DNA of 64,000 bases, taken from sequence record NC_054912.1; one strand, 5' to 3'. This document shows, piece after piece, positions 3,675-62,525 of this stretch. A model generated the notes under the pieces. That model worked only from the letters and a program-made list of their open reading frames with translations, was not told where the DNA came from and ran no database searches. Every line of letters begins with the position of its first letter. Within the stretch, counting starts at the first letter, position 1. The position numbers and the translations under genes were made by a program. Origin of the DNA: Escherichia phage vB_EcoM_F1.

Positions 3675-3698
3675 AAAGGGACCTTTCGGTCCCTTTTT
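3675..3698. terminator. Bidirectional terminator hairpin between gene 24 (+) and rnlB (-)
   Basis: aaagggacc-tttc-ggtcccttttt, A-run on one side and T-run on the other. Confidence 0.7.
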
Positions 3699-16228: not shown

Positions 16229-17151
16229 TGTATTCTTTAGAGGAATTTAATAATCAAGCAATAAACGCAGATTTCCAACGTAATAATATGTTTAGCTGCG
16301 TTTTTGCAACAACTCCATCAACTAAAAGCTCTTCGTTGATAAGTTCAATTAGCAACTTTTCTTATAATAACTTGGGCCTAAATTCAAATTGGTTAGGATT
16401 AACTCAAGGTGATATTAATCAGGGAATTACCACGCTAATTACAGCTGGCACACAAAAACTGATAAGAAAATCAGGGGTTAGTAAATATCTTATTGGTGCC
16501 ATGAGTCAACGTACTGTCCAGAGTTTATTAGGCTCATTTACAGTTGGTACATATTTAATTGACTTCTTTAACATGGCATATAACTCATCTGGATTGATGA
16601 TATACTCTGTAAAAATGCCAGAGAATAGATTATCCTATGAAACTGACTGGAACTATAATTCTCCTAATATTCGTATAACTGGGAGAGAATTAGACCCTTT
16701 GGTTATTTCATTTAGAATGGATTCAGAAGCTTGTAACTATCGTGCAATGCAAGACTGGGTTAACTCCGTTCAAGACCCAGTAACTGGATTACGTGCTTTG
16801 CCACAAGATGTCGAGGCAGATATTCAGGTTAATCTTCATTCTCGTAATGGATTGCCTCATACTGCGGTGATGTTCACCGGATGCATTCCAATATCAGTGA
16901 GCGCTCCTGAGTTATCATATGATGGAGATAACCAAATAACTACATTTGATGTTACTTTTGCGTATAGAGTGATGCAGGCTGGAGCAGTTGATAGGCAAGC
17001 TGCGCTTGAATGGCTTGAATCTGCTGCTATAAATGGTATTCAAAGCGTTCTCGGAAATAGTGGAGGTGTTACTGGACTATCTAATTCGCTTTCACGACTT
17101 AGTAGACTAGGAGGAACCTCAGGAAGCATTTCAAATATTAGTATACTATGA
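16228..17151 (+). CDS. 54: Baseplate tail tube initiator gp54
   Basis: 307-aa ORF, start/stop-coupled to gene 48. Confidence 0.88.
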   Translation: MYSLEEFNNQAINADFQRNNMFSCVFATTPSTKSSSLISSISNFSYNNLGLNSNWLGLTQGDINQGITTLITAGTQKLIRKSGVSKYLIGAMSQRTVQSLLGSFTVGTYLIDFFNMAYNSSGLMIYSVKMPENRLSYETDWNYNSPNIRITGRELDPLVISFRMDSEACNYRAMQDWVNSVQDPVTGLRALPQDVEADIQVNLHSRNGLPHTAVMFTGCIPISVSAPELSYDGDNQITTFDVTFAYRVMQAGAVDRQAALEWLESAAINGIQSVLGNSGGVTGLSNSLSRLSRLGGTSGSISNISIL

Positions 17152-17199
17152 CAGGGATTGTCAATTCGCAGAGTAAAATATTAGGAGCAATATAACAAT

Positions 17200-17217
17200 G
17201 GGGACCTTTCGGTCCCC
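17200..17217. terminator. Bidirectional terminator hairpin between gene 54 (+) and alt-region genes (-)
   Basis: ggggacc-tttc-ggtcccc with flanking A/T runs. Confidence 0.65.
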
Positions 17218-17223
17218 ATATTT

Positions 17224-17514
17224 TTATTTACGGAATGAAATGAAAGCAGAAACTGAAGCAACTAAACTGTCTTCAATATAAACTTCAATTTTTACCGGAG
17301 CTTCTGACTCAAATTTACCTGTTACTACACCCTGAAAAATACTTTCAGTCTGTTCTGGCTTTGAAAAATTTTCAGAAGGAAAAATTCCAAACTTTTTATC
17401 TGTTCCGAAAATTTTGATAAATTCATCATAAACTGCTTCATTAAAAGCATTATCAGCAGGAATAACGCCTTCAACTACAAGTTCTTGACCTAAAAAGCGT
17501 AAAGAAGATTTCAT
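17224..17514 (-). CDS. Hypothetical protein (alt.-3-like position)
   Basis: 96-aa ORF downstream of alt. Confidence 0.55.
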   Translation of the reverse strand: MKSSLRFLGQELVVEGVIPADNAFNEAVYDEFIKIFGTDKKFGIFPSENFSKPEQTESIFQGVVTGKFESEAPVKIEVYIEDSLVASVSAFISFRK

Positions 17515-17545
17515 TTTGTGTTCCTCATGTTATGTCAGTAAGACT

Positions 17546-17575
17546 ACTATAACACAACACGAGGGACTTGTAAAC
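17546..17575 (-). promoter_or_regulatory. Early sigma70-type promoter (TTTACA-17-TATAGT) within a 53-bp repeated cassette
   Basis: minus-strand gTTTACA, 17-nt spacer, TATAGT, then GAGGA Shine-Dalgarno. Confidence 0.5.
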
Positions 17576-17930
17576 TACATTTTGAACTTTTTAGTACGCG
17601 TAATAGGCATGCGTCGATTTTATACTGTTTCATTGTTTGAAGAGCAGTATCAAAAACAGCATTAATGACACCAATTGGATTTCCACCCAACTTAACTAAT
17701 GATAGTTTCTCATTAACACCTATCATTACGATATGCATCATTTTGTCGCCTGGTTTAACGTTTTATTTGTATCACCGCCAGAGGTGTATGTACAAAATCT
17801 AAATCCAGGAAGCACGCTTTCTTCGCCGGCTTGAATAGCAAAAATTTGTGGTATTTTATGCTTAGGATTTAAGTTAACAACCGGCGCCGAAGCGCCGTCA
17901 AATAATTATGTAATAAGTTCCATGATTTAT
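17547..17930 (-). pseudogene. Decayed paralog of the alt N-terminal region (premature stop and frameshift)
   Basis: minus-strand translation gives MELIT-stop, then shifted frames ...NLNPKHKIPQIF...GFRFCTYTSGGDTN... and MMHIVMIGVNEK...TMKQYKIDACLLRVLKS, paralleling Alt residues 1-125. Confidence 0.6.
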
Positions 17931-19978
17931 CCTTGAACGAACTTGTAAGGCATGTTTGCAATATCTATGCAAGACGCAATAATTCCAAGAGATGATTCTA
18001 CTTTCTGTTTAACATTTGATGAAACAAATGATGCAAAGTCAACTCTGTCTTCTATATCACCTGTCATTGTAACCAATTCACCAGTTTCCATTAAATGGTC
18101 TCCGTCATAGATTACCGATTCGGTGAGTTCTTCTGTGGTCATAACTTCAGCTTGAATAAGCTTGTTGTTAGTTCTAACTGTTCCATCGTTGTAAGATGCA
18201 TCAGTTATTTTATTAACTTTGACCATTAATCCACGTGGCAAAATGACTTCCATTTCATTTGAAGGCGCTAAACTTCCACCGGGTAAAACAACATTGACCT
18301 TATCAGCCCCAGTAATAACCCATCCAATTCCAACTAAATTATCGCTAGAATTTACTAGTCCTTCATCAGTTTTATCAATAGAAACGCTTAGACGCTTTTC
18401 GTCTGGTAAAACACCTATAGATGAATCAGTCATCCAAGTACCAAAAATATTTGGATATAATGATGTTGACACAAAGTTTCTAAAATAAAAAACTCGATTT
18501 TTTACCATTGCTTCATATATTGAAGGTAACATTCGTTGTGAACGATACAAAGTAATACCTTTTGGTAATCGTTCACCATTTTTAAAGGCTGAATCTAAAT
18601 TATCAATGGCTTGTTCTATTTCAGATGCTGTTAAAATACTTGTACGCTCATCTGGATTATATAATCCCAAAAGAGCATTATTCATGTCTACATATCCTGA
18701 ACCTACATATTCACGAATTCCGCGTTTTTGCGCTGGTGTGTATTTAGATGAATCTTTATTTTCGACTATAGGATGTAATGACCATCCAGCGGTAAGAGCA
18801 TATCCACGTAATTCTCTTCGAATAATCTTTGTTTTTATTGCATTCCAAGAATTTTGTACTAACTCATTTGCAGCATCTTGGTTTAAATGCGAATGTCTGT
18901 TAATATTTCTTTCAAACCAAGCACCTTTATATTTTTCTAAAGTATCATCGACGATAGAAGCAATAGTTTCTAAAGTTTTTATTGAAGTAATAGATTCTTT
19001 TCGTAATTTTTCTAAAGCTTTATTTTTTATTTCTGCATTAATAATGGATTCTTTATCTTCAGGAATTATAGAAGCTTCTCTGAATGTCATTCCAGCTGTA
19101 ACACTGCTAAGAGCATTCTCTAGTGCAAATCCTGAAGTAGAAATAACAGTTAATTCATTAGCATCAGAAATTAAAGGAGCGTCAGCAGGTTTATTTAATT
19201 CTGCTGCTGAAGCCTCAAATTTTTGAAACATCGGCGTTTCAAATCTAGAAGATTCCAACGACTGACTTTGTGCAATTGCTCTACGTGAAATTTTAACTTT
19301 AACGATTACAGCTTGGTCAGAACGTTTATCATTTTCTTGTGCAATAGATGCTGCAATTGCCTCATTTTTAGTTACTTGAGCTCCAGTATCTTTATTGATA
19401 TAAACATCACCGACCTTCGATTCAACTTTAGTAAAGAGCTCGGTACTAATTTCCGGAACTCCTGGAATGTCTTCTAGTGATACATTTTTGCGATGTATAA
19501 GAATATATGCATACTTTTTATCATAATCCCAGAGTTCCTTAAGAAGGACGTATCTGCCACCTGAACGACTACGGATAAGTCTATCAGCAATAACTTGAAT
19601 TTGTCGAGCTTGGCCAGCAGTTTTAGACTTAAGAATACGAAGCATACAAGCATCAATTTTATACTGACGCATTGTTTGCATTGCAACAGTAAAAACCGAA
19701 TTGATATAATTAATTGGGCTTGGACCAAGACCTTTCAATTTAGCAATTGAACCTTTAGCAGTTAATGTAAAAGGAACAATATGCATCATTTTATCGCCCA
19801 TCTTTAAATCGCGATTAGTATCACCTCCAGATGTATAGGTACATAAACGAAAGCCTGGTTGTTCAATTGCATCATCAACATGAACTGAAAAAATTTGCGG
19901 TATTTTCTTCTTTGGATTTAAGTTTGTAATTGGAAGAGTAGTATCTTCGTCAAATAATTCTGTAATTAGTTCCATCAT
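17927..19978 (-). CDS. alt: Alt ADP-ribosyltransferase (packaged, modifies host RNA polymerase)
   Basis: 683-aa ORF, T4 Alt size and position downstream of gene 30. Confidence 0.9.
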   Translation of the reverse strand: MMELITELFDEDTTLPITNLNPKKKIPQIFSVHVDDAIEQPGFRLCTYTSGGDTNRDLKMGDKMMHIVPFTLTAKGSIAKLKGLGPSPINYINSVFTVAMQTMRQYKIDACMLRILKSKTAGQARQIQVIADRLIRSRSGGRYVLLKELWDYDKKYAYILIHRKNVSLEDIPGVPEISTELFTKVESKVGDVYINKDTGAQVTKNEAIAASIAQENDKRSDQAVIVKVKISRRAIAQSQSLESSRFETPMFQKFEASAAELNKPADAPLISDANELTVISTSGFALENALSSVTAGMTFREASIIPEDKESIINAEIKNKALEKLRKESITSIKTLETIASIVDDTLEKYKGAWFERNINRHSHLNQDAANELVQNSWNAIKTKIIRRELRGYALTAGWSLHPIVENKDSSKYTPAQKRGIREYVGSGYVDMNNALLGLYNPDERTSILTASEIEQAIDNLDSAFKNGERLPKGITLYRSQRMLPSIYEAMVKNRVFYFRNFVSTSLYPNIFGTWMTDSSIGVLPDEKRLSVSIDKTDEGLVNSSDNLVGIGWVITGADKVNVVLPGGSLAPSNEMEVILPRGLMVKVNKITDASYNDGTVRTNNKLIQAEVMTTEELTESVIYDGDHLMETGELVTMTGDIEDRVDFASFVSSNVKQKVESSLGIIASCIDIANMPYKFVQG

Positions 19979-19998
19979 ATCCTCTCTAGTGTTTATTC

Positions 19999-20006
19999 TA
20001 TTTATA
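19999..20006 (-). promoter_or_regulatory. Late promoter TATAAATA upstream of alt
   Basis: minus-strand TATAAATA about 20 nt upstream of alt ATG. Confidence 0.5.
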
Positions 20007-20027
20007 AAATTAAAGGCCCGAAGGCCT

Positions 20028-20216
20028 TTAATAATCTAACGGTAAGAGAGTACGATATATTTCAAACTTTGGACCTTTTTCATAGGCATCAAATGTTTCT
20101 GTGAATTTATTATAAGCATATGCATCTACAAATTCGAGAATGACTTGTGATACAGAAGTAGAAACATCTCCACCTTCTTTTTGAGCAATGACAATTGTTT
20201 CTAAGTAAGCTTTCAT
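20028..20216 (-). CDS. Small hypothetical protein
   Basis: 62-aa ORF whose ATG overlaps the gene 30 stop (ATGA). Confidence 0.45.
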   Translation of the reverse strand: MKAYLETIVIAQKEGGDVSTSVSQVILEFVDAYAYNKFTETFDAYEKGPKFEIYRTLLPLDY

Positions 20217-21676
20217 AGACCAGTTACCTCATGAAAATCACCAAATACATCCTCGAATGTATTAGCTTTAGTTTTATCTTCGCGTAAACGAATCGCAATC
20301 GGAAGAAATAATTTAACGTAATCAGTGCGGCCATCAGATTTTAACCAACCGTTGCATTCGCACTCTAGAATTTTTCCAATATAATAATTTTGGTTTTCCA
20401 TAATGCGAGTACGGTCAAGTTCATGTGATTTTACGCCGGCTTTATCTTTTAAGCCTGAACCAGCATTTACCTTAATTTTTCCACACTCTGACTCAAGAAT
20501 AAATCCACCTGCTTTAGTAGGGTCTTTACGGTGAGGATAAATTCCTACAATTTTTAAATCAACATCAATTACTTCTTTAAATTTATAGAGATTTTTTGAA
20601 CGAGCATTTTCCCATAATCCATCGATATTTTTGAGAATAATACCTTCAAGACCTTGGTCAATATACTTTTTATAAATTACCTTAGCTTCATCTAGGTTAT
20701 TTACTACCTGGTTTTCAATTAAAATTACTTTATCATAGCCTGATGTCATTTGTTCTAGTTTAGAAAAACGTACATCATATTTCAAACGAAATGCAGGAAG
20801 ACCGTATATTTCTACCAACGGGACATAATCCCAAACCTGAAACTTCATGCATTGAGCTTCTTTTTCAGAAATGGTTCCCTTTAAAGATTTATTAGCGATT
20901 CCATTAGAAGTAGTACGTGATTCAGCTACTTCGGCGAATTCTTTGGCTTTACTAATTTCAGGATAAGCATCAAAAAGAAAATCTAGGCCTTCTGGCTCCT
21001 TTTTAACTTGCTCATGGTATACCAATTCGCCATCAATTAACACGCCTTCTGGATGAATCTGGCGGGCTTCAGCGGTCATTTTGATTAATTCTTCCTTAAG
21101 AAGATCTAATCCTAGATATTCATTACCAGCTCGTGATAAAAGACGAACATCATCTAATTCATCACCTCTGACTTCGGCAAAGCACCGAGCCCCATCAGCT
21201 TTTAACTGGGCAAAGGCTGGAAATTTGATATTCTTATTAATGCCTTTTTCATCATAAGAACTTGCAAGCATTTGAGGTTGTTCAGGAATTAAACCTGACC
21301 AAACTTTGTTTGCAATAGATACTGAAGCACCACATTCAAGGTCTCGCATCATCACTCGACGCAAAACTTCAACATCATCTTTTTTACCATCGGTGATATA
21401 TCCAGTTAATTCCTCAATTGCTGCATTTCCAGTCAATTTCCGAGTAGCTAATGTGAATTCAATGAAGTCAAGCATATCGGTAAGAGTCAACATTCCAAAA
21501 CTCTGGGTAGCAATACCAGGTTTAGGCCATTTCTTGATATAATACTGCAACCCACGAGAATAAGTCAGACGATATACTCGTTTAAGCAATTCATTATCTT
21601 TATTCTTTTCAAGAATTGCTTGCTTCTGCTTAGTTGAACCAATAGATGCTATTTCGTTCAGAATTTTAAGAATCAT
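20213..21676 (-). CDS. 30: ATP-dependent DNA ligase gp30
   Basis: 487-aa ORF, T4 ligase size and position. Confidence 0.95.
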   Translation of the reverse strand: MILKILNEIASIGSTKQKQAILEKNKDNELLKRVYRLTYSRGLQYYIKKWPKPGIATQSFGMLTLTDMLDFIEFTLATRKLTGNAAIEELTGYITDGKKDDVEVLRRVMMRDLECGASVSIANKVWSGLIPEQPQMLASSYDEKGINKNIKFPAFAQLKADGARCFAEVRGDELDDVRLLSRAGNEYLGLDLLKEELIKMTAEARQIHPEGVLIDGELVYHEQVKKEPEGLDFLFDAYPEISKAKEFAEVAESRTTSNGIANKSLKGTISEKEAQCMKFQVWDYVPLVEIYGLPAFRLKYDVRFSKLEQMTSGYDKVILIENQVVNNLDEAKVIYKKYIDQGLEGIILKNIDGLWENARSKNLYKFKEVIDVDLKIVGIYPHRKDPTKAGGFILESECGKIKVNAGSGLKDKAGVKSHELDRTRIMENQNYYIGKILECECNGWLKSDGRTDYVKLFLPIAIRLREDKTKANTFEDVFGDFHEVTGL

Positions 21677-21942
21677 TATTCATCCTTCAGAGTTTGGTTT
21701 ACAGCTCTATTATAAATCAATTCATCATTAAGCTCAGTCAAAGACTTATGATATGTGGTTCTAACTTTATTTCCTTGCATCCAGTGCTTGATATAAATGA
21801 AACCTTGCTCTACGCATTTTTTAAAAATTCGTTCGTCTTTTTGAGCTCGGAATTCTGGATTGCATCTAAAAAATTGATTTACGTGACCGTAATCACGTGT
21901 AGTATTACCTTCATTTTCATAAATAGTATGAACAACAAACAT
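21676..21942 (-). CDS. 30.1: Hypothetical protein 30.1
   Basis: 88-aa ORF start/stop-coupled to gene 30. Confidence 0.6.
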   Translation of the reverse strand: MFVVHTIYENEGNTTRDYGHVNQFFRCNPEFRAQKDERIFKKCVEQGFIYIKHWMQGNKVRTTYHKSLTELNDELIYNRAVNQTLKDE

Positions 21943-22781
21943 TAGAACGCTCCTTGAAAAATATTATCACCACTAGTAGGTCTATTATACAAATACTCTA
22001 TGCCACCAGGTTTAATATAGTTCCATGTCTGAAACGGATGCGTCTGATATGGATGATATAGATGATTATAAGGATTAAATCCAGGAGTTCTCCAGGTAGT
22101 GTTCCAAGGAAAAGAATCGTTTTTAATCATCTTTTCAATTACATCTTTTATAGCTTTTTCACTATCAAAACTTTCTTTATTTTCCTTTGGTGAAAAAAGC
22201 TTATTCTCTACATCGTTCCATGTATAAACTCGCTGAGCAGTTTTTGGAATATTGTCACGCTCCCCTCGAGCCATCCAATAAACAGGAACATTTAATATTT
22301 CACTCGCGTGATCGCAGTGGTGAGCGAGATCGTCAATATAACAAATTACGTTATATTTCTCTTTTGCCTTTTTGAACAACTCTTCTTTTGAAGAATCATG
22401 ACCACACATCATTACTTCTGAGAAGGCACCAGGAAAAAGAGCATTTAAATTAAATTGACGATTCAGCAGAGCGTCAATAGAATCACCCAATGCTGTAACA
22501 GCTACAAAATTATAATCTTCTTTTAATTTGTTAATTACACACAGAGCATCTTTATATGGAGACAAGTAACGAATAAAATCTGAACGATTGTATTTTTCAA
22601 TTAACTTGACGCCAAGTTCTTCGTCACAATTAAAGAGTTTACCAGGAGAAATAAATTTCTCATCTTGGATCATTTTTAAAATATGTTCTAACGGAAGATT
22701 ATATTTCTGAGCAAAATAAGGAAGGCCTGATTGCCAGCTTAAACATACTCCATCAATATCAGTTAAAATAGTAGGCTTCAT
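21942..22781 (-). CDS. 30.2: Hypothetical protein 30.2 (possible HAD-like hydrolase)
   Basis: 279-aa ORF; N-terminal DIDGV motif resembles HAD motif I. Confidence 0.6.
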   Translation of the reverse strand: MKPTILTDIDGVCLSWQSGLPYFAQKYNLPLEHILKMIQDEKFISPGKLFNCDEELGVKLIEKYNRSDFIRYLSPYKDALCVINKLKEDYNFVAVTALGDSIDALLNRQFNLNALFPGAFSEVMMCGHDSSKEELFKKAKEKYNVICYIDDLAHHCDHASEILNVPVYWMARGERDNIPKTAQRVYTWNDVENKLFSPKENKESFDSEKAIKDVIEKMIKNDSFPWNTTWRTPGFNPYNHLYHPYQTHPFQTWNYIKPGGIEYLYNRPTSGDNIFQGAF

Positions 22782-23242
22782 AGAGAGTCTCTTAATAGGT
22801 TTAACACATCAATAAATTCAGCTTCGGTTAGTATTGTATCATCTTTTGTTAGACCACTAGCCATGCTGTGCTTCAAAACTTTTCCTTTCGAGGCTTGTAA
22901 TGCATCACGAAAGCCCTTGTTTTGGATCGCTGCTTCAAAATATGCATTTGTGTATAATTCTTTCCACGCCGGGGAGTATCTTGAAAACGGAACTCCAAGC
23001 CAGAAGAGGGTCCCACGGTCCTGAGCTCTAGCATAAGACCTTCCAGCTTGTTGAGCGGAAAGCCCGGATAACCCAAATATACGACGTTGTTGTTCAACGT
23101 TTTTCACCTTGCATCCTTGGAGGAATCCTTCAAGACCTCCAAATTGAATACCATCCATAACGAAAGGCCATTGGGCGAAATTACTTAATGCACATGATGG
23201 CCACCTAAAATTACTTCTAATCTCTAACTCAGACATTTTCAA
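22778..23242 (-). CDS. 30.3: Hypothetical protein 30.3
   Basis: 154-aa ORF, coupled to neighbours. Confidence 0.6.
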   Translation of the reverse strand: MKMSELEIRSNFRWPSCALSNFAQWPFVMDGIQFGGLEGFLQGCKVKNVEQQRRIFGLSGLSAQQAGRSYARAQDRGTLFWLGVPFSRYSPAWKELYTNAYFEAAIQNKGFRDALQASKGKVLKHSMASGLTKDDTILTEAEFIDVLNLLRDSL

Positions 23243-23435
23243 TGCTTATAATTTCAACATCAGCCCAATGACCATAGTTTGGTAGACGAAATTCAACTGG
23301 CCAGTTAGGGTCCTTTTCTAATATAATAGACTCAACTCGTGGTTCTTCATGTTCATCAGTATATGGATTTTTATCTGTTACTTTATATGTGACCTTAATG
23401 TACTGAATTCCAAAAATCTTATTAATTATATTCAT
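23229..23435 (-). CDS. Hypothetical protein (30.3'-like)
   Basis: 68-aa ORF in co-oriented run. Confidence 0.5.
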   Translation of the reverse strand: MNIINKIFGIQYIKVTYKVTDKNPYTDEHEEPRVESIILEKDPNWPVEFRLPNYGHWADVEIISIENV

Positions 23436-23629
23436 ACTAATTCCTTTAATCCGTAAATAGGAGATAATTCATCACCCATACGAAGGTCTTCATTTCCATC
23501 TACCCAGGAAACAATATAAGCCTCTTTTATTTGAACACCACTCCATTTAAATGGAGGTAGAACCTTAGAAATTAATCCAGGTATACCAACTCCCTTTAAT
23601 TCAACAGTTTGACCTAAAAAGAATTTCAT
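23432..23629 (-). CDS. Hypothetical protein (30.4-like)
   Basis: 65-aa ORF. Confidence 0.5.
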   Translation of the reverse strand: MKFFLGQTVELKGVGIPGLISKVLPPFKWSGVQIKEAYIVSWVDGNEDLRMGDELSPIYGLKELV

Positions 23630-23967
23630 TAGAACCTCATCTGAAAACCGTGCGATTTAACATTACCGCCGCCAATATCAGAAATGTTAATTTCACGCGC
23701 AATTGAAGGGTCAATGTCAATTTCACGATTGAGTTTAGTGATAGCTAAAGTATCGCACCCATTTACAGTACGAAACTCTAAAGGACAAACCACATCAACG
23801 TAGTTTTTAATCGATTCGCTCGTAGGTTGCAAATGTGCAGGAAGGTCTTTAGGTGCCTTTGAGAAAACAACTTCACAGAAATTTTTGCGGGTATCAAAAT
23901 AAGTAGTCATAAACATAATATTTTCCTCAGTAAGGGGCCAAAGCCCCTGTTTTATTTTAAATATCAA
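23629..23967 (-). CDS. Hypothetical protein (30.5-like)
   Basis: 112-aa ORF. Confidence 0.55.
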   Translation of the reverse strand: MIFKIKQGLWPLTEENIMFMTTYFDTRKNFCEVVFSKAPKDLPAHLQPTSESIKNYVDVVCPLEFRTVNGCDTLAITKLNREIDIDPSIAREINISDIGGGNVKSHGFQMRF

Positions 23968-24334
23968 ATTCGTTAAGAACTACATCAAAGATTGCTTCAA
24001 GATGCTCAGGTTTAGCTCTGTTACTCAGAATATGACGAATCCAAGTTTTAACTAAGAGTTTACGATTAGCACCATTCCAGCAAGGATGAGTCCCTAAATC
24101 GCGTTGACGGAAATCATCATCCAGAGCGATTTTAAAGTTGGAACCTTCCATCGTGATTGAAACTGTAATACCGTTTTCAAATCGCATATAAACGTAGTTA
24201 GGAGTCATATACTGATCGATTTCACATACTGATCCATTTTGATGTTTCCAGAGGCAAATAGTATCAATAGAACCTGCAATACCATTAGAAACATATTTAC
24301 GTTCAAAGTTGATGTAGTTCATTTTATTCTCCAA
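23957..24334 (-). CDS. Hypothetical protein (30.6-like)
   Basis: 125-aa ORF. Confidence 0.55.
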   Translation of the reverse strand: MENKMNYINFERKYVSNGIAGSIDTICLWKHQNGSVCEIDQYMTPNYVYMRFENGITVSITMEGSNFKIALDDDFRQRDLGTHPCWNGANRKLLVKTWIRHILSNRAKPEHLEAIFDVVLNEFDI

Positions 24335-24389
24335 GATGTTTAATTGCGGTACAGGTATATAATATCATATCCTGTACCAAAGTAAACAA

Positions 24390-24722
24390 TTATTTTACTA
24401 CTTTCCAATGCTGCATGTCAAGTTTACCAACTTTTTTCATCTTCTCAATTAAGCGTTCGGCACGTTGGCGAGCTGTAACATAATGCCATTCGCCTAATTC
24501 ATTTTGTTCAATTTTTCCAACGATTACTGTATTCAATTCATAAATCCAACCGGTAAAGAAATTATGAACTTGAATTGTAAAGGTGAAATCTGTTCCCATA
24601 CCTTCTGTTGTTTCTACTTCAATAATATCACCTTCAACTGCCATTAAGAACCACATAGTTTCATTATATGCACCGTTGAAGCATTTAGTTTTAACCGCAG
24701 CGTTCAGATTAATCGTTTTCAT
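24390..24722 (-). CDS. Hypothetical protein (30.7-like)
   Basis: 110-aa ORF. Confidence 0.55.
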   Translation of the reverse strand: MKTINLNAAVKTKCFNGAYNETMWFLMAVEGDIIEVETTEGMGTDFTFTIQVHNFFTGWIYELNTVIVGKIEQNELGEWHYVTARQRAERLIEKMKKVGKLDMQHWKVVK

Positions 24723-24746
24723 TTTATTCTCCTTTGTTTGTGTAAG

Positions 24747-24775
24747 ATAATACTATCACAAAGGAACCATACTGT
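24747..24775 (-). promoter_or_regulatory. Candidate early promoter (TTTACA-17-TAGTAT) upstream of 30.7-like gene
   Basis: minus-strand TTTACA, 17-nt spacer, TAGTAT, then AAGGAG before ATG. Confidence 0.4.
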
Positions 24776-24832
24776 AAACAACTTTATGCAATCTTTGGAA
24801 AATAAAAAAGGACTCCCGAAGGAGTCCTCAAC

Positions 24833-25051
24833 TTATGCTTTCTGCTTACCAAAACGAGAAGCATCATCTCGAAGAACCGCACGTGCTCGGCGCATGATCT
24901 TCTCAACAGTTTGATTGATACGAGAGTTCGACCCACGCTTGTAGCCAGCGCGTTTAGAATCACCAACTTTCTTTTCAACTGCTTTCTTTGCTTTAGCTTG
25001 TTTTGCCATTATAAATTCTCTTTTAAATGAAAATGCAGGACTTATTGGCAT
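24833..25051 (-). CDS. Small basic hypothetical protein (30.8/30.9-like position)
   Basis: 72-aa Lys/Arg-rich ORF followed by a terminator hairpin at 24808-24827. Confidence 0.5.
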   Translation of the reverse strand: MPISPAFSFKREFIMAKQAKAKKAVEKKVGDSKRAGYKRGSNSRINQTVEKIMRRARAVLRDDASRFGKQKA

Positions 25052-25409
25052 TGCCTGCGCAAGCCCTCAAGGGGAACATAGGTTTTTGGATATTTAACGA
25101 CCAGGATAACCATAAACCCGTCATCATACCTTATAGCTCTTATCTGTTGCACACCGTTAGCTTAAAGGTTCCGGGTTCGATTTCTCGAGGATAAGATATA
25201 TATACTGATGGATATATAGGCCTTGAGGCGTACTCCCGATTGGCCATCACCTCGGGGTAGCATGCACTTGCCGCTATAAGAATAACATTCAAGAGGTACA
25301 CCGTAAAACTGCCGGGGTCTTAAAACTATAATGATTCGCAAATCATTAATCAGACAGTTCGACGGCTCCTCGATTTTAGCTCACACTAAGGCAGTGAATC
25401 TCCAATAAA
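25052..25409 (-). other. ORF-free segment with GC-rich patches and long-range complementary blocks; possible structured RNA or gene remnant
   Basis: No ORF of 60 aa or more on either strand; stops in all minus frames; complementary blocks such as ccctcaagg (25064-25072) and ccttgagg (25221-25228). Confidence 0.3.
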
Positions 25410-25658
25410 TTACTTCAATGTTACCACAAAGTGGCGAACTGCTTTTCGTGCAGCAGAAGCCAAAGGCTTAGCATATTTAAGTTCATCTTTTTCCTGAAGC
25501 TCAGCAGCTAATGCAGTTTGAGCAGGATTCAGATGTTTGAAATAACACAGGATTTCAAGAGCTTCGGCTTCAACATCAATAGATGCGCCATAGTTTTCGT
25601 GACCATTATTCCATGCGTTTCGTTGCAGTTCAAGAGCGTGTTGTAATTGTTTAATCAT
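25410..25658 (-). CDS. rIII: rIII lysis-inhibition accessory protein
   Basis: 82-aa ORF, T4 rIII size and position next to gene 31. Confidence 0.8.
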   Translation of the reverse strand: MIKQLQHALELQRNAWNNGHENYGASIDVEAEALEILCYFKHLNPAQTALAAELQEKDELKYAKPLASAARKAVRHFVVTLK

Positions 25659-25805
25659 TTAAAAATTCTCGTTAGAGATTAAAACTCGGTAGTCACGTTC
25701 TTCTGAATTTCATCTTCTTTCGACAGATCTCTCAGTTGTAGACTACCACATAGAATTGTTCGGTTAACTTATTATTCCGACACCCAATTCATATTATTAT
25801 TTATA

Positions 25806-26141
25806 TCACTTATAAAGACACGGAATAGCTTTATAGTGACAGGTAACGAATTTTTGTTTAATTTCTTTTGGCTGCTTAAGACCCAGAGCTACAAAAGGAT
25901 GCGGAACATTTCGAATTTGACCAACTGGAAGAGAAGTCAAATCACCAACTTCGCAGAAACCTTCAGGAACATCAGGACCGACAGAGTGAACTACACACAG
26001 TTCAGGAACTTCACCTTGAACACGTTTACCGATAATAAGTCCTGATTCTGTAACTTCTTCATCACCGGCTTGTGCAGGTTCAGAAACTAAAATAACATAT
26101 TCACCGACAGCACGAATTGGTAGCTGTTGTACTTCAGACAT
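25806..26141 (-). CDS. 31: Co-chaperonin gp31 (GroES analogue)
   Basis: 111-aa ORF, T4 gp31 size/position. Confidence 0.9.
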
Positions 26142-26197
26142 CGTTTTTCCTTTTTGTTAACAGATGAATTAATAATAACAAATAATTCTTAAAGCAT

Positions 26198-26506
26198 TTA
26201 TTTACCAATAAATTGAAGCAAATGCTCAACTTTCATACCATTAACAGAAATCAATTTGTCAATAGAAAAACCTCGCCATGCACCAAGCTCAACATCAAAT
26301 ATTGGAATCATATCCGTAGATTCTTTCCGAGTAGATTCAGTCAATTTACCAGTTTGCATGGTTGGCATAAAGTCTGCATCACGAGTACCTTTCATAGTAC
26401 GAATAGTACCATCAGACTTTTCAAAAACTATGTTTGAAACACCCATGGACAATTTAGTTTTCAAAATTTCACGAATTGCTACTTTCTGCTCAGTTGTCAG
26501 TTTCAT
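26198..26506 (-). CDS. 31.1: Hypothetical protein 31.1
   Basis: 102-aa ORF. Confidence 0.6.
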   Translation of the reverse strand: MKLTTEQKVAIREILKTKLSMGVSNIVFEKSDGTIRTMKGTRDADFMPTMQTGKLTESTRKESTDMIPIFDVELGAWRGFSIDKLISVNGMKVEHLLQFIGK

Positions 26507-26743
26507 TTATTTACCTATTACAGTTTTAATATGAGTTGTTCCACGTTCTTTAAGGGTGGAAAGTAATTTTTGGCATTTTTCTAAATCAGATTTCCAACTA
26601 TATGGTCTATCATTACAAACCCAATTTGTCTTATAATACTGTTTCCATTTAGAGAAAAAATATTTCTTATACTCTACAGCAAATGAGATGTTCTCGTTAG
26701 AATAAGAACTAATTGCTGTGAGTTGTACCAAACGAAATTTCAT
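26507..26743 (-). CDS. 31.2: Hypothetical protein 31.2
   Basis: 78-aa ORF. Confidence 0.55.
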   Translation of the reverse strand: MKFRLVQLTAISSYSNENISFAVEYKKYFFSKWKQYYKTNWVCNDRPYSWKSDLEKCQKLLSTLKERGTTHIKTVIGK

Positions 26744-27324
26744 TATTCACCACAGAATTCGTTGATATTTTCCCAGTTTAACTTATTCAAGTTTTTCTTA
26801 GGAACATTAAACACTTCAATACCTGCATTTCGCAGAATATCATCCCAGCCAGGTTTATTTTTATCGTATGTTTCACAATAAACCAGCTTTTTAATTCCAG
26901 ATTGAGCTATTGCTTTTGCACAATCTGGGCAAGGAGAAAGTGTTACATACATAGTAGCACCTTCAATTGAAGAACCATTTCGTGCAGCAAACAAAATTGC
27001 ATTTAGCTCAGCATGAATTTCATTTTTAGACGACCATTCAGAGTGAGCGCCGCGGTGTTCTTTCGCCAAAACAAAACGATCAGTTGAACCAAATGATACG
27101 CATTCAGGCTTATGACCTTGGATGATAGTATGTTTAGGCTTATTCAATAACCAACCTTGCTCAGCAGCATAATCACAACAGTTCACACCCCCTGCGGGTG
27201 AACCATTATACCCAGTAGAAATAATACGTCCATTCTTTTCAATTACTGCTCCTACCTTCCAGGAGCAACATTTTGATTCCTGCGATACTAAATATGCAAT
27301 TTGAAGTACTGTACTCGCTTTCAT
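26743..27324 (-). CDS. cd: dCMP deaminase
   Basis: 193-aa ORF with cytidine/deoxycytidylate deaminase zinc motifs (HAE...PCxxC: HAELNAILFAA, SPCPDCAKAI). Confidence 0.92.
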   Translation of the reverse strand: MKASTVLQIAYLVSQESKCCSWKVGAVIEKNGRIISTGYNGSPAGGVNCCDYAAEQGWLLNKPKHTIIQGHKPECVSFGSTDRFVLAKEHRGAHSEWSSKNEIHAELNAILFAARNGSSIEGATMYVTLSPCPDCAKAIAQSGIKKLVYCETYDKNKPGWDDILRNAGIEVFNVPKKNLNKLNWENINEFCGE

Positions 27325-27659
27325 TTCATAATCACCAGATAAGCAGATTTAGCAGTTTCAACACGATAAATTTCGTGACGAAGTTTAGTTATACTTTTAA
27401 TAACAGAACTAATTATATTCTGCCCATCTTTAAAGCGGTTTTTCTTATCAATAAAAACTGCGCCAGTCATCTTTTTGTGAAGCTCAACTGGATACTTCGT
27501 CACAATAATAGCATCATACACAGAAGGATGAATACTATTCACCAGAGTATCATTCATTAAAGTTATTCTAATGAACTTTGCTGTTTCAGAGTCAAGCGCT
27601 CTATGATCACCAGTATCATTTTCAAGACAATTATCAATTATATCAGTTAAATTCATCAT
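27321..27659 (-). CDS. Hypothetical protein cd.1
   Basis: 112-aa ORF coupled to cd. Confidence 0.55.
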   Translation of the reverse strand: MMNLTDIIDNCLENDTGDHRALDSETAKFIRITLMNDTLVNSIHPSVYDAIIVTKYPVELHKKMTGAVFIDKKNRFKDGQNIISSVIKSITKLRHEIYRVETAKSAYLVIMK

Positions 27660-27892
27660 AGTACGCCATACACCCTTTGTGCTTCAACTAATCCATCAAA
27701 ATCCAATTTAAGATGCGATATTTGATCGCCATCACCTGGATTCACAATTACTAATACTGAACGAGGAGTTTCGGTAATAACACGAACCGATGTTTCAGGA
27801 AATCGTTCAGAAACCTTATTTACTAATTCCTGTGCAAATAGTTTAACTTTTTCTTGGAATTCTTTAACAGTAATCGGTTTTTCACTTAGCAT
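27656..27892 (-). CDS. Hypothetical protein cd.2
   Basis: 78-aa ORF. Confidence 0.55.
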   Translation of the reverse strand: MLSEKPITVKEFQEKVKLFAQELVNKVSERFPETSVRVITETPRSVLVIVNPGDGDQISHLKLDFDGLVEAQRVYGVL

Positions 27893-27953
27893 TTTGTTTT
27901 CCTCATTTGTTTGGTAGAGCTATAATATCACAACTCTACCGTAAAGTAAACCA

Positions 27954-28235
27954 TTAAATTGCTTTGAATTCTGCTGTCTGTGATTCAAAACGAATATCGC
28001 CTTTGATGACTAGCTCAGCATCAAGACCAAATACGACAATGATATGCGCGGAACCCGGATACAGCGTAATTGCAATAGAATCCACCTGGTCTGGAAGCAA
28101 AGTGTTCAATACATGAGTCACTTGAGCATGAATTCGAAGCTCGGCTGCGTTATCAAGCTTTTCAAACATATTATTAGCGATAATTTGACTAAACACTACT
28201 TCTACGATTTTAGAATAAGTCGGAAACATATTCAC
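27954..28235 (-). CDS. Hypothetical protein cd.3
   Basis: 93-aa ORF. Confidence 0.55.
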   Translation of the reverse strand: MNMFPTYSKIVEVVFSQIIANNMFEKLDNAAELRIHAQVTHVLNTLLPDQVDSIAITLYPGSAHIIVVFGLDAELVIKGDIRFESQTAEFKAI

Positions 28236-28424
28236 CCCACATAATTTTCTTCAAGCCAATTAATAACATCCAACGCATTATCAAAAGTTGAACCATCTAC
28301 TATGTCTTCTGTTTCATAATCAAGAATATCTAAGTCTACTCTTCCATCAACAATAGGCCATAAACAAAATAGATATTTCTTTTCTTTTTCAATTTTATCA
28401 CAAAGTCGATAAATCTTTTCTATG

Positions 28425-28432
<8 letters not shown>
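28232..28432 (-). CDS. Hypothetical protein cd.4
   Basis: 66-aa ORF. Confidence 0.5.
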
Positions 28433-29822
<1,390 letters not shown>

Positions 29823-29826
<4 letters not shown>

Positions 29827-30053
29827 TTATTTTTCTCAACCAATGATTGAATATAATCATGCAGGTCTTTAGATGCTTTACCCCACTTATTTTGATATTC
29901 ATTTTTGAGATTAGCACGTGATTGAGCTAATAAAACATCATTAGTTGGAGGTAAAGATTCTAACCGCTGAATCTGGCGTCCATAAATCATTGCAGCCATC
30001 TCGGATTCATAAATCAATCCTTTGAGATGTTCAAATTGATGCCATGAAATCAT
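29823..30053 (-). CDS. Hypothetical protein
   Basis: 76-aa ORF. Confidence 0.5.
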
Positions 30054-30349
30054 TTACATTTATCCTCTTTTAACTCTTGACGATAATAACATATCATAGT
30101 TTTCTGGTCATGTACATATCGTTTTACATCATTAAGCCAAATACGAAATTCCTGGGAATCTTCAAATGGCATACCGACCCAAGCTTTACCATCAATAACT
30201 TTAACTTGCCAAGATAGTTTAGCTTCGTCATATGACTTTATTTGTACAGGCCAATTAGGATGAACTGTTTCTTTCTTTACTTCTAGAGGCTTTGTCGAAC
30301 AACCAACTAAAAGACCAATAGATAATATTACTGCTGATAGTTTAATCAT
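30050..30349 (-). CDS. Outer-membrane spanin lipoprotein (Rz1 equivalent; T4 pseT.2-like)
   Basis: 99-aa ORF with signal peptide and lipobox LVGC (MIKLSAVILSIGLLVGCS). Confidence 0.6.
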   Translation of the reverse strand: MIKLSAVILSIGLLVGCSTKPLEVKKETVHPNWPVQIKSYDEAKLSWQVKVIDGKAWVGMPFEDSQEFRIWLNDVKRYVHDQKTMICYYRQELKEDKCK

Positions 30350-30699
30350 TTAGAAAGGTCCTGGATGTCTTCTGCGAACTTGTTGAAGGAGTTGTTGATT
30401 TGTTTTTCAACCAATCCTGGCTTATGAGCCACCACATCCGCCTTCTTTGCATCTTTGCGCAGTTTTTCATTTTCACGCTCAATAGCAGCAATTGCCTCAC
30501 GATTTTTATTATTCATCGCATCAATATAATTATACTGAATTCGCAAATTATTTAATGCTAAAGCGTTTTCATTGGCCGTTTTTGTAATTTCAGTAACTGA
30601 TGTTTCTAATCTTTCTACCTTATTTTTTAAAATAATAGATGTTCCGCCAAATGCTATTACAAGTAATAGCAATCCAGCTGTAAAATTACTTACATGCAT
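30346..30699 (-). CDS. Inner-membrane spanin (Rz equivalent; T4 pseT.3-like)
   Basis: 117-aa ORF with N-terminal TM helix (AGLLLLVIAFGGTSIIL) followed by charged coiled-coil-like region; immediately upstream of lipoprotein gene. Confidence 0.6.
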   Translation of the reverse strand: MHVSNFTAGLLLLVIAFGGTSIILKNKVERLETSVTEITKTANENALALNNLRIQYNYIDAMNNKNREAIAAIERENEKLRKDAKKADVVAHKPGLVEKQINNSFNKFAEDIQDLSK

Positions 30700-31196
30700 A
30701 AAGTTTTAATAACCTCTATAATATCGTCTTGAGAAAGACCGTTAATTAAAATATGATGTTCAGCTGGAGATTTAGAAATTTTAAAGCATGCCTCAACATC
30801 TTCTGCCATATCCGATGCACTACGGTTTGGATTACTAATACCAAGGCGGTGTTTTCCCGTCAAAGGATTAACGATGATATAGCATTTGCAGTTATTGATA
30901 TGAACATTAGGTTGAGTCTGATTAATGAACACTTCACAATCATACTTAGCGAGTTGATTTTCTAAAAAGACTTTCATCTCTTCAACCGCATCAGGAAGCA
31001 TATCACGGGCTTGCTCAAGACGACGATTTCGATATTCTTTAATGGTCGTTTTCCGCTTGACTTGCTTAGCTAAATCTTTCTTAAGATCAGTGATATATCC
31101 AACTCGACGATTTCCTTTGAATACAGAAATCCCATCTGTAGTATCACCGTATGCTTCAACGACCATTTCAGTAGTAATAAGTTGTAAATCCATCAT
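30690..31196 (-). CDS. alc: Alc, inhibitor of host transcription
   Basis: 168-aa ORF MMDLQLITTEMVVEAYG..., T4 Alc size/position. Confidence 0.85.
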   Translation of the reverse strand: MMDLQLITTEMVVEAYGDTTDGISVFKGNRRVGYITDLKKDLAKQVKRKTTIKEYRNRRLEQARDMLPDAVEEMKVFLENQLAKYDCEVFINQTQPNVHINNCKCYIIVNPLTGKHRLGISNPNRSASDMAEDVEACFKISKSPAEHHILINGLSQDDIIEVIKTLCM

Positions 31197-31223
31197 AAAG
31201 TCCTCATGTTATGTCAGTAAGAC

Positions 31224-31253
31224 TACTGTAACACAACACGAGGGACTTGTAAA
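31224..31253 (-). promoter_or_regulatory. Early promoter in second copy of the 53-bp cassette (TTTACA-17-TACAGT) upstream of alc
   Basis: 52/53 identity with 17523-17577; promoter-like hexamers plus GAGGA SD. Confidence 0.45.
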
Positions 31254-31257
31254 CAGC

Positions 31258-32845
<1,588 letters not shown>

Positions 32846-41351: not shown

Positions 41352-41394
41352 ATTATTTTCCTCTTTAATCATCAGCAGTATTGCCGATAGTTGT

Positions 41395-41424
41395 ATAGTA
41401 CCATGGAAGGACAAGGATGTAAAC
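41395..41424 (-). promoter_or_regulatory. Early promoter (TTTACA-17-TACTAT)
   Basis: minus-strand gTTTACA, 17 nt, TACTAT, preceded by an A/T-rich UP-like tract. Confidence 0.5.
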
Positions 41425-41455
41425 CGTTTTGTGAAAAAAATTTTTGAAATAAAAA

Positions 41456-41477
41456 AGGGGACCTCTAGGGTCCCCAA
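41456..41477. terminator. Terminator hairpin downstream of gene 32
   Basis: ggggaccc-tcta-gggtcccc flanked by A/T runs. Confidence 0.65.
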
Positions 41478-58221: not shown

Positions 58222-58263
58222 TTTCTAATCTCCGTAATTCTGTATCAGTAGTTGATAGTTGTA

Positions 58264-58292
58264 TAGTACCACAGTATGCTTTGGTTGTAAAC
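58264..58292 (-). promoter_or_regulatory. Early promoter upstream of motA (TTTACA-17-TACTAT)
   Basis: minus-strand TTTACA, 17 nt, TACTAT with upstream A/T-rich tract. Confidence 0.5.
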
Positions 58293-58321
58293 TGTTTTGT
58301 GAAAAAATTTTTAAATAAAAA

Positions 58322-58343
58322 AGGGAGAGCCGAGGCTCTCCCT
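58322..58343. terminator. Terminator hairpin
   Basis: gggagagcc-gag-gctctccc flanked by A-run. Confidence 0.6.
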
Positions 58344-61281: not shown

Positions 61282-61387
61282 AGTAAGCGTTTAATACATC
61301 AATCATTAAAACGATTGGGAATATACTCAAAACTACTAGTATTATAACTACATTCCATATAGCTTTAACAATCTTTTTCATTTTCAT
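61268..61387 (-). CDS. Small membrane protein (ndd.x)
   Basis: Start set at MKMKKIVKAIWNVVIILVVL after GGAGG; the 84-aa track ORF runs through the promoter at 61416-61444. Confidence 0.45.
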   Translation of the reverse strand: MKMKKIVKAIWNVVIILVVLSIFPIVLMIDVLNAYFGFM

Positions 61388-61415
61388 TTTCTGTTCCTCC
61401 GTAGTTGATAGAGTA

Positions 61416-61444
61416 ATAATACCACAGAGGAACAGTCTTGTAAA
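61416..61444 (-). promoter_or_regulatory. Early promoter (TTTACA-17-TATTAT)
   Basis: minus-strand TTTACA, 17 nt, TATTAT, then ACGGAGGAACAG SD region. Confidence 0.5.
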
Positions 61445-61630
61445 CAACTTTTTTAAAAATATTCGTAATAAATGTGAATACCAACTACTACCGCTGAAAC
61501 CTGTGCAACCCACCACGCACAAGCAATAAGTACAGAATTCAAAATTTTCATAATAACCTCATCACAAAAGTAAATGTTAAACAAATTACTGGAATACTAA
61601 TTAACCAAACAAAACACCACCATAATGAAC

Positions 61631-61894: not shown

Positions 61895-61921
61895 TTTTAC
61901 TCCTCCGTAGCTGATAGTTGT

Positions 61922-61950
61922 ATAGTACCACGGTCCTTGTGGTATGTAAA
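61922..61950 (-). promoter_or_regulatory. Early promoter (TTTACA-17-TACTAT)
   Basis: minus-strand TTTACA, 17 nt, TACTAT, then ACGGAGGAG SD; same family as 41395, 58264 and 61416. Confidence 0.5.
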
Positions 61951-61967
61951 CTGTTTTGTGAAATTTT

Positions 61968-62525
61968 TTAAATGGAAAGATACCATCCGTTGTAGTTGCT
62001 TTTTCTTACAACCTTACGAAGGTCTTCTCTGTCACCGATGAACTTCGGAGTGTACTGGATGACACCTGGATGAATTTCTTTAGTGTTGAATATAATTATA
62101 CAGTCAGCGACCTGATGATTTAGAATGGGCCCTAGATTTATTCCAGAACCATATGGATACTCTCCGCTGCATCCTGTTGTCACCGAAATCCAACGTGAGT
62201 CAGTTTGATGTGTCTTAACTTCTACACGAAGCCCACAGTATTTTGGATGTGCTAAAACATCCCATGCATACGTGTACGGATCATCGACATCTTCTTGACC
62301 TTTGTTAACATACCCACTCAACCAATCTGCTACAAAAAACTCTGCGTACACAGCGATACGACATCTTTCGATGACCTCAGCCTTATCTTGATTTGGATTT
62401 TGTTTTAAAGAGTATCTTGCAGTATCAGCAATTTTGACCTTCATTTCACTAGTCAAATCACTGTTCGATAGGGTAAATGTCGGAATCTGAAATAGTCTCT
62501 GTAAACCCGGATTCGTTTTCTGCAT
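61968..62525 (-). CDS. denB: Endonuclease IV (DenB)
   Basis: 185-aa ORF, T4 DenB size and position next to rIIB. Confidence 0.8.
   Translation of the reverse strand: MQKTNPGLQRLFQIPTFTLSNSDLTSEMKVKIADTARYSLKQNPNQDKAEVIERCRIAVYAEFFVADWLSGYVNKGQEDVDDPYTYAWDVLAHPKYCGLRVEVKTHQTDSRWISVTTGCSGEYPYGSGINLGPILNHQVADCIIIFNTKEIHPGVIQYTPKFIGDREDLRKVVRKSNYNGWYLSI

Follow-up and report, generated by a model that had tools for sequence, protein, structure and literature searches.

Why does a phage keep one short promoter and leader sequence in two nearly identical copies, in front of two different genes? The question arises in a 64,000-nt stretch of the genome of Escherichia phage vB_EcoM_F1 (record NC_054912.1; hereafter, the window), in which a 54-nt cassette precedes both alc and a homologue of alt.-3. 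We find that in each copy the spacer between the −35 and −10 hexamers of the promoter is complementary to the leader and its Shine-Dalgarno sequence, a feature overlooked in the original prediction, which had been made from the sequence alone. Based on RNA folding and on comparisons across phage genera, we consider it reasonably probable that the composite cassette is a translational gate: RNA that reads through from upstream would hide the ribosome-binding site, and RNA that begins at the cassette's own promoter would leave it open.

Promoter and predicted hairpin

The cassette is present as two direct repeats on the minus strand, with the sequence GTTTACAAGTCCCTCGTGTTGTGTTA, then T or C, then AGTAGTCTTACTGACATAACATGAGGA. 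The copies match at 53 of 54 positions, their sole mismatch falls in the −10 hexamer (TATAGT in copy A, TACAGT in copy B), and identity ends sharply on both sides, where the flanks of the two copies are unrelated. No comparable repeat pair appeared in any of 100 dinucleotide-preserving shuffles. The reported presence of a near-identical promoter/leader cassette in two places is therefore upheld, with exact ends that differ by 1–3 nt from those first given and with the strand, left unnamed there, now assigned. The positions of the elements and of the adjoining genes are as follows.

17522–17575, minus strand: cassette copy A, 54 nt (GTTTACAAGTCCCTCGTGTTGTGTTATAGTAGTCTTACTGACATAACATGAGGA), occupying the whole gap from the alt.-2 relic to alt.-3
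31201–31254, minus strand: cassette copy B, 54 nt, occupying the whole rnlA–alc intergenic gap; its −10 hexamer TACAGT is the sole difference from copy A
17569–17574, minus strand: −35 hexamer TTTACA of copy A, followed by a 17-nt spacer
17546–17551, minus strand: −10 hexamer TATAGT of copy A, preceded by TG, in the upper part of the hairpin
31248–31253, minus strand: −35 hexamer TTTACA of copy B
31225–31230, minus strand: −10 hexamer TACAGT of copy B, preceded by TG
17539, minus strand: putative transcription start of copy A, an A 7 nt past the −10 hexamer and downstream of the 5' arm, placed by promoter geometry
17551–17564, minus strand: 5' arm of the predicted fold in copy A (CCUCGUGUUGUGUU), formed by the promoter spacer (anti-Shine-Dalgarno)
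17523–17536, minus strand: 3' arm in copy A (GACAUAACAUGAGG), formed by the 5' leader including the Shine-Dalgarno sequence GAGG(A), which ends at 17522
31230–31243, minus strand: 5' arm of the predicted fold in copy B (promoter spacer)
31202–31215, minus strand: 3' arm in copy B (leader and Shine-Dalgarno sequence, which ends at 31201)
17224–17514, minus strand: alt.-3 homologue, 96 amino acids, the gene served by copy A
30690–31196, minus strand: alc, inhibitor of host transcription, the gene served by copy B
31258–32382, minus strand: rnlA, with its stop codon 3 nt upstream of copy B; its transcripts would enter the cassette

Every promoter and leader element that had been listed (TTTACA, a 17-nt spacer, TATAGT or TACAGT, and GAGGA) is present in both copies, and copy B directly precedes alc, as had also been stated. 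Judged by consensus, both copies are sigma-70 early promoters: TTTACA-17-TATAGT of copy A matches at 10 of 12 positions and TTTACA-17-TACAGT of copy B at 9 of 12, and both have the GTTTAC(A) −35 element, the spacer of 17 ± 1 nt, and the TAnnnT −10 element of T4-type early promoters, together with an extended −10 (TGn). The early promoters of T4 and PST have been described as TTTACW-N17-TAYWAT (PMC4122927), a pattern that the cassette promoter fits. A-rich runs upstream of the −35 (AAAAAGTTCAAAATGTA and AAAAAATTTATCCCAG), where T4-type early promoters have an A/T-rich UP element, lie within coding sequence and are unlike between the copies. What sets the cassette apart from ordinary early promoters, both in the window and at alt.-3 of other genera, is the pairing of spacer with leader. 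Experimental start-site data for alc or alt.-3 were not found in the searchable literature. A terminator scan gave no intrinsic terminator upstream of either copy, and no convincing minus-strand terminator was found between copy B and the early promoters approximately 9–10 kb upstream; read-through into the cassette is therefore expected.

In the predicted stem, cassette positions 12–25 (the 5' arm) pair with positions 40–53 over 14 bp, three of them G·U, and an apical stem of 4–5 bp stands above. The −10 hexamer (positions 25–30) and the expected start (approximately A37) fall within the upper stem and loop. GAGG is thus paired in the 14-bp lower stem of any RNA that contains both arms, and transcripts of the nested promoter, if they start where geometry places the start, lack the 5' arm. 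The sense RNA is predicted to fold with −23 kcal/mol (z = −3.8) in copy A and −29 kcal/mol (z = −4.5) in copy B. The antisense RNA folds more weakly (−17.2 and −17.9 kcal/mol; z = −1.6 and −2.1), as the three G·U pairs would lead one to expect, which indicates a feature of the sense strand at the RNA level. An RNA that starts near the expected start is essentially unstructured (−2.5 to −5 kcal/mol; z = 0.28 and −0.74). For both copies in vB_EcoM_F1 and in T4, opening the segment from the Shine-Dalgarno sequence to the AUG is predicted to cost 15.0–17.8 kcal/mol in read-through RNA and 1.2–3.3 kcal/mol in own-promoter RNA. A difference of 13–14 kcal/mol in opening energy at a ribosome-binding site would amount to a complete block of initiation.

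The stretch 17000–32000 of the window has no Rfam match at gathering score. We rejected a role as intrinsic terminator: neither AACACAAAAUG nor CUUUAUGAUG, the sequences that come after the hairpin, provides a U-tract, and the hairpin was not called in the scan.

Conservation of the hairpin upstream of alc

We compared the regions upstream of alc in 12 further genera (13 with Tequatrovirus). The same design, built from different sequences, recurs in 9 of the 12 (10 of 13 with Tequatrovirus). In all nine, the 5' arm starts directly after TTTACA and its partner arm holds the Shine-Dalgarno sequence; promoter position 8 pairs, without exception, with a base at position 52–57, 4–7 nt ahead of the ATG. 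The 5' and 3' arms, in that order, are as follows.

Dhakavirus: UCUCCUCAU and AUGAGGAGA
Roskildevirus: UCUCCUCAG and CUGAGGAGA
Gelderlandvirus: UCUCCGUUUaGUU and AACcAAACGGAGA
Karamvirus and Moonvirus: UCUCCAUUUGGUU and AACCAAAUGGAGA
Jiaodavirus: UCCUCAUCAG and CUGAUGAGGA
Bragavirus: ACCUCUCAUUUUU and GAAAAUGAGAGGU
Kanagawavirus: UCCCAUUUUGUU and AACAAAAUGGGG
Winklervirus: UCCUCAUUUCGUU and AACGAAAUGAGGA

Covariation was assessed on a gapless, register-anchored alignment of a 13-pair lower stem, plain MAFFT having misaligned the 3' arms. On this alignment, 90 per cent of cells are paired, compared to 63.2 ± 3.1 per cent in shuffles (none of 500 as high), 11 of the 13 stem pairs have changed on both sides, and 36 compensatory cells are observed where 12.7 ± 2.9 are expected. 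Slid registers give merely 46–54 per cent pairing. Swapping arms between genera, which needs no alignment, yields a mean of −17.6 kcal/mol for cognate pairs versus −10.2 kcal/mol for non-cognate pairs; none of 100,000 permutations reaches the cognate total, and in 9 of 12 genera no other combination outdoes the cognate pair. Within Tequatrovirus, stem transitions found in approximately 13–16 genomes are of six types, all of which preserve pairing, and pair 15–50 passes through a complete series from C-G to U-G to U-A. The pair counts, the arm swaps, and the variation within Tequatrovirus support the view that the pairing is under selection. The opening-energy differences upstream of alc in the nine hairpin genera range from 6.8 to 15.8 kcal/mol. 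Control sites, namely the window's ordinary early promoters and those of alt.-3 in other genera, give −1.2 to 7.1 kcal/mol.

Gaprivervirus VR25 has, between rnlA and alc, an extra open reading frame (ORF) of 77 amino acids that is annotated as 'inhibitor of host transcription' (L042, 160–393).

Further instances in the window

We scanned the window for TTTACW-N17-TAnnnT. A third instance of spacer–leader pairing lies upstream of a small ndd.4-like membrane ORF (61375–61450, minus strand; −35 hexamer at 61439–61444). Its spacer, CUGUUCCUCUGUGGU, pairs with the Shine-Dalgarno-containing ACUACGGAGGAACAG in a perfect 15-bp stem (−24.1 kcal/mol; z = −5.3), with an opening-energy difference of 14.1 kcal/mol; the promoter is annotated in T4 record X75802.1. 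A fourth, weaker instance lies upstream of the gp30.8 homologue (ORF 24390–24722), at 24712–24785 on the minus strand with the −35 hexamer at 24773–24778. There, UUCCUUUGU pairs with ACAAAGGAG in a 9-bp stem (−17.6 kcal/mol; z = −3.8), with an opening-energy difference of 9.4 kcal/mol. None of the remaining early-type sites that the scan detected in the window has spacer–leader pairing.

Distribution of the cassette pair, origin of the alt.-3 copy, and exchange between copies

Phage T4 (Tequatrovirus) has both copies, likewise with one mismatch, at a position other than that in vB_EcoM_F1: its alc copy is identical to copy A of the window, and its alt.-3 copy carries the mismatch. With the 54-mer as query, blastn gave 995 matches in 498 phage records, each of at least 90 per cent identity and none beyond the T4 group. 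In these records there are two cassettes per genome, always in the alc and alt.-3 contexts. Because the 498 records show two copies each in the same two contexts, the pair is, on this sampling, an old and fixed feature of Tequatrovirus and not peculiar to vB_EcoM_F1. Scans of IMG/VR and metagenomes added only approximately 10 Tequatrovirus contigs; two metagenome matches (L032 and L039) are due to chance. BLAST searches with the Dhakavirus and Karamvirus cassettes returned mostly single copies. No similarity was found between the Alc and Alt.-3 proteins, which limits the duplication to the 54-nt cassette.

The alt.-3 gene of Dhaka-, Mosig-, Gapriver-, Marfa-, and Karamvirus is preceded by an ordinary early promoter whose spacer contains a small internal inverted repeat, and in none of these five does the spacer pair with the Shine-Dalgarno sequence. 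The alt.-3 cassette is, by this comparison, specific to Tequatrovirus. The outer blocks of the ordinary alt.-3 promoters (...AAAATGTAGTTTACA on one side, CATGAGGA...ATGAAATC on the other) also form the two ends of the alt.-3 copy in Tequatrovirus. This is most simply read as the core of the alc cassette having overwritten an ordinary alt.-3 promoter, between two short homologies, in an ancestor of Tequatrovirus. In the RB69-like phage NHEP10 (L040, approximately 345–400), the leader of alc, AACAACACGAGGAG, still matches a 5' arm of the Tequatrovirus type by complementarity (−20.6 kcal/mol), but the phage's own spacer is generic; it seems that the core of the promoter was exchanged here with loss of the hairpin, the reverse of the alt.-3 event.

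A small inverted repeat in the spacer just ahead of TACTAT, e.g. CCACAAGGAnnGTGG, occurs in many ordinary T4-type early promoters, among them those at 61950, 58291, and 41423 of the window (minus strand), one in NHEP10 (L040), and the alt.-3 promoters of the five other genera.

Several substitutions are found in both copies of the same genome. PP01 carries the derived bases A29 and A32 in both copies; in OBRH01000009 and, with an additional A12, in ZN18, the same two occur only at alt.-3, and A32 alone occurs once at alc, in contig ERZ1673747. Phage vB_ECOLIGBLB0003 carries A16 and C27 in both copies, and C27 is elsewhere found at alc only. In total, the alc context shows nine variants and the alt.-3 context 10, with five common to both (hypergeometric P-value = 3e-5 for all substitutions and 2e-4 for transitions only). 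This overlap supports occasional gene conversion between copies across approximately 14–15 kb, although parallel selection at the same sites may account for the shared variants instead. No deletion or duplication between the copies was seen in the 498 records. Such a deletion would take out essential T4 genes, e.g. 30 and 31. The suggestion that the repeats are substrates for recombination and mark promoter shuffling survives in part: the copies seem to exchange sequence and promoter cores seem to have been replaced, but no rearrangement breakpoint falls at a cassette in any of the 498 records.

The alt relic and the leader ORF

What remains of a second alt gene, the alt.-1/alt.-2 relic, precedes copy A, in agreement with the earlier statement that the first copy stands beside a truncated alt paralog. 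Three short ORFs touch the cassettes.

17547–17741, minus strand: alt.-2-like relic ORF of the truncated second alt gene; its last 29 nt extend into copy A
17511–17528, minus strand: mini-ORF in the leader of copy A (ATG AGG AAC ACA AAA TGA), judged incidental
31193–31207, minus strand: mini-ORF in the leader of copy B (ATG AGG ACT TTA TGA), judged incidental

The second alt paralog is full-length in T6, PP01, vB_ECOLIGBLB0003, and others, and vB_EcoM_F1 and T4 retain approximately 340 nt of its 5' end. Aligned with PP01 (L014, 12944–15060), the relic (17500–17930 of the window, minus strand) corresponds to an internal deletion of approximately 1.69 kb, at whose junction a 9-nt stretch around CTAAAAAG aligns to both sides. 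We considered and rejected truncation of the paralog mediated by the cassette: the junction is a short overlap approximately 10–19 nt upstream of the cassette and unrelated to it.

The leader ORF was described correctly insofar as each copy has an ATG...TGA of 4–5 codons whose stop overlaps the downstream ATG; its frame, length, and presence are not conserved across genera. A better account of its ATG is that it pairs with the CAT or CGT of the 5' arm.

Comparison with known systems

Hairpins that cover a ribosome-binding site and enclose a promoter are known in T4 for e, soc, 49, I-TevI/II/III, and segB, and in Aeh1 for mobE; all those described serve late genes and contain a late promoter (PMC3014915, PMC2988022). 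As in the cassette, the Shine-Dalgarno sequence of these genes is buried in read-through RNA, and the promoter's own RNAs start between the arms and are translatable. The differences are that their nested promoter is late (gp55, TATAAATA), whereas that of the cassette is a sigma-70 early promoter; that in the cassette the 5' arm is the promoter's own spacer; and that the cassette would confine translation to the early period, whereas theirs delay it. With a sigma-70 early promoter nested in the hairpin, the cassette is therefore a variant of the class and not a member of the described set.

The promoter-early stem-loop (PeSL) cassettes of T4-type phages are repeated, recombining early-promoter units (PMC2839356, PMC4122927; Arbiol 2010, Comeau 2014). 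They resemble the cassette in joining an early promoter, a Shine-Dalgarno sequence, and an ATG into a single intergenic unit, and in the tendency of the units to recombine. The stem-loop of a PeSL, however, is a terminator upstream of the promoter, whereas the hairpin of the cassette encloses the −10 hexamer and the start site; and PeSLs are numerous, lie in hyperplastic regions, and flank insertions and deletions, whereas the cassette has two fixed copies at which no insertion or deletion ends. We did not assign the cassette to the PeSLs, given that neither copy has an upstream stem-loop and that both are fixed in the 498 records.

A PeSL layout does occur elsewhere in the window, where a terminator hairpin (G+C-rich, with a T-run) at 41457–41475 is followed by the promoter at 41423 (minus strand). 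This promoter belongs to repeat family D1, which consists of early-promoter regions that are 61–78 per cent similar (41386–41475, minus strand; 58254–58322; 61407–61475; 61913–61981).

Proposed mechanism and alternative explanations

The start of transcription, the read-through from upstream, and the block to translation, which we infer from sequence and folding models, would combine in the following way. A strong early promoter for host RNA polymerase would encode, in its 17-nt spacer, an anti-Shine-Dalgarno sequence. RNAs arriving from upstream (from rnlA, denA, and the nrd genes in the case of alc; from alt and the alt relic in the case of alt.-3) would contain both spacer and leader, fold, and bury the ribosome-binding site, leaving alc and alt.-3 untranslated. 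RNAs from the cassette's own promoter would begin in the loop of the hairpin, without the 5' arm, and keep the site open. Synthesis of Alc and Alt.-3 would then track the activity of the early promoter in the first minutes of infection and not the total mRNA. The alc cassette would be old and orthologous across T4-like genera; its core would have been copied over the ordinary alt.-3 promoter of the Tequatrovirus ancestor, between the common GTTTACA and CATGAGGA blocks, and the near-identity of the two copies would be kept by the double constraint of promoter and hairpin together with occasional gene conversion. The T4 protein Alc halts host transcription on DNA that contains cytosine. Mutants of Alt.-3, a small early protein, escape defence by the CmdTAC system (PMC11618068).

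More tentatively, we suggest that the arrangement is a conserved and previously undescribed 'early-only' gate of T4-like phages, held upstream of alc in at least 10 genera, copied to alt.-3, and recurring independently at two or more other promoters (ndd.4 and 30.8), which may keep such genes silent on the abundant delayed-early and middle read-through RNAs as a post-transcriptional element of early shut-off. If this is true, the promoter of origin, and not the amount of mRNA, would time the appearance of these proteins, which would explain how some early proteins can cease to be made while the coding sequences are still transcribed from upstream, and the classic mechanism of T4 late genes would extend to immediate-early genes. 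An anti-Shine-Dalgarno sequence in a promoter spacer would offer a signature for annotation, and the two cassettes would provide a natural case of distant regulatory copies held alike by gene conversion. For phage engineering, the warning would be that a new promoter placed upstream of such genes will not increase their expression.

Several observations weigh against this interpretation. In NHEP10 a promoter is present upstream of alc without pairing, in Gaprivervirus VR25 no alc promoter is found at that site and an extra ORF is there instead, and in Tegunavirus the nested hairpin ends just short of the Shine-Dalgarno sequence; given these exceptions, the arrangement is dispensable. Three stem transversions in the approximately 13–16 Tequatrovirus genomes (16G>T, 40G>T, and 12C>A) disrupt pairs. 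The register of the alignment was picked for each sequence, a choice that favours pairing and for which the slid registers and the swaps of cognate and non-cognate arms serve as controls. A ribosome that ends translation of the upstream ORF halts beside the −35 hexamer, from where it might unwind the lowest part of the stem. As for novelty, the searchable literature yielded no previous account of an early promoter enclosed by a hairpin, a search that falls short of the older T4 papers, in which a prior description is possible.

Could the cassette instead be a plain duplicated promoter and leader, a PeSL-like recombination linker with no role in RNA, in which the inverted repeat is incidental? 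Its good promoter consensus, the presence of recombining repeated early-promoter cassettes in T4-type genomes (PMC2839356, PMC4122927), and the support for gene conversion between the copies all fit such an origin. We nevertheless regard it as unlikely: promoter spacers have few sequence requirements of their own, yet complementarity between spacer and leader is held in 10 genera by compensatory changes despite differing sequences; the two copies per genome are immobile in 498 records; and, with no stem-loop upstream of the promoter, the cassette lacks the PeSL layout. It is quite unlikely, in our judgement, that the hairpin serves the upstream message, whether as a 3' stabilizer, as a processing site, or as a shield of GGAG/GAGG from RegB or other nucleases. 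RegB does cleave GGAG in the Shine-Dalgarno sequences of early mRNAs, with secondary structure protecting them (PMC3014915), and GGAG lies in the paired arm of several genera; but Tequatrovirus, Jiaodavirus, and Winklervirus keep the stem with GAGGA and no GGAG, the stems, at 9 to 18 bp, vary more than an RNase III site would allow, they are not followed by a U-tract, and the Shine-Dalgarno sequence of the gene downstream is in every case covered by the 3' arm, for which an element acting purely at the 3' end would have no use.

Upstream translation could also matter in the opposite sense, if ribosomes finishing the upstream ORF opened the hairpin and so tied translation of alc and alt.-3 to that of their neighbours. 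Stop codons do lie 0–5 nt upstream of GTTTACA in most genera, and in vB_EcoM_F1 and T4 the alt.-2 relic ORF traverses the 5' arm and ends inside the cassette. Such coupling is decidedly unlikely, since the Tequatrovirus 5' arm starts at least 11 nt beyond the −35 hexamer, past the reach of a terminating ribosome, the ORF stops ahead of the cassette where the alt paralog is full-length, and coupling has no need of a promoter start placed between the arms. An operator or cruciform acting at the DNA level, at which a phage or host factor binds the repeat and shuts off early promoters, would suit both a repeat that spans the core promoter and the description of T4 early-promoter shut-off as not fully understood (PMC3014915). 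The G·U wobble pairs and the clearly stronger sense-strand fold speak for RNA, the free covariation of the arms leaves no conserved binding motif, and the position of the distal arm is invariably that of the Shine-Dalgarno sequence, all of which makes an operator very improbable. Hardly credible is a leader peptide, in which the mini-ORF of 4–5 codons is translated and, by way of the ATGA overlap, passes its ribosomes on to the downstream ATG. Both copies have the ATG...TGA overlapping the start codon, but the ATG of the mini-ORF is not preceded by any Shine-Dalgarno sequence, GAGGA being inside the mini-ORF; across the other genera this ATG shares the frame of alc, lies out of frame, meets a stop after three codons, or is missing; and its presence is accounted for by the CAT or CGT of the 5' arm.

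Other features in the window

Between the convergent genes 54 and alt.-3 lies a bidirectional terminator-like hairpin (ATGGGGACC...GGTCCCCAT; 17198–17219, both strands). Similar GGGGCC/GGCCCC hairpins are found at 3678, 5259, 20008, 23928, and 62801 (repeat families D4, D5, and D12). The region 46173–47098 (plus strand) contains diverged tandem and interspersed coding repeats of approximately 35–68 nt (families D2, D3, and D9), spaced at multiples of 108–120 nt, and looks like a repeat-containing structural (fibre-like) gene.

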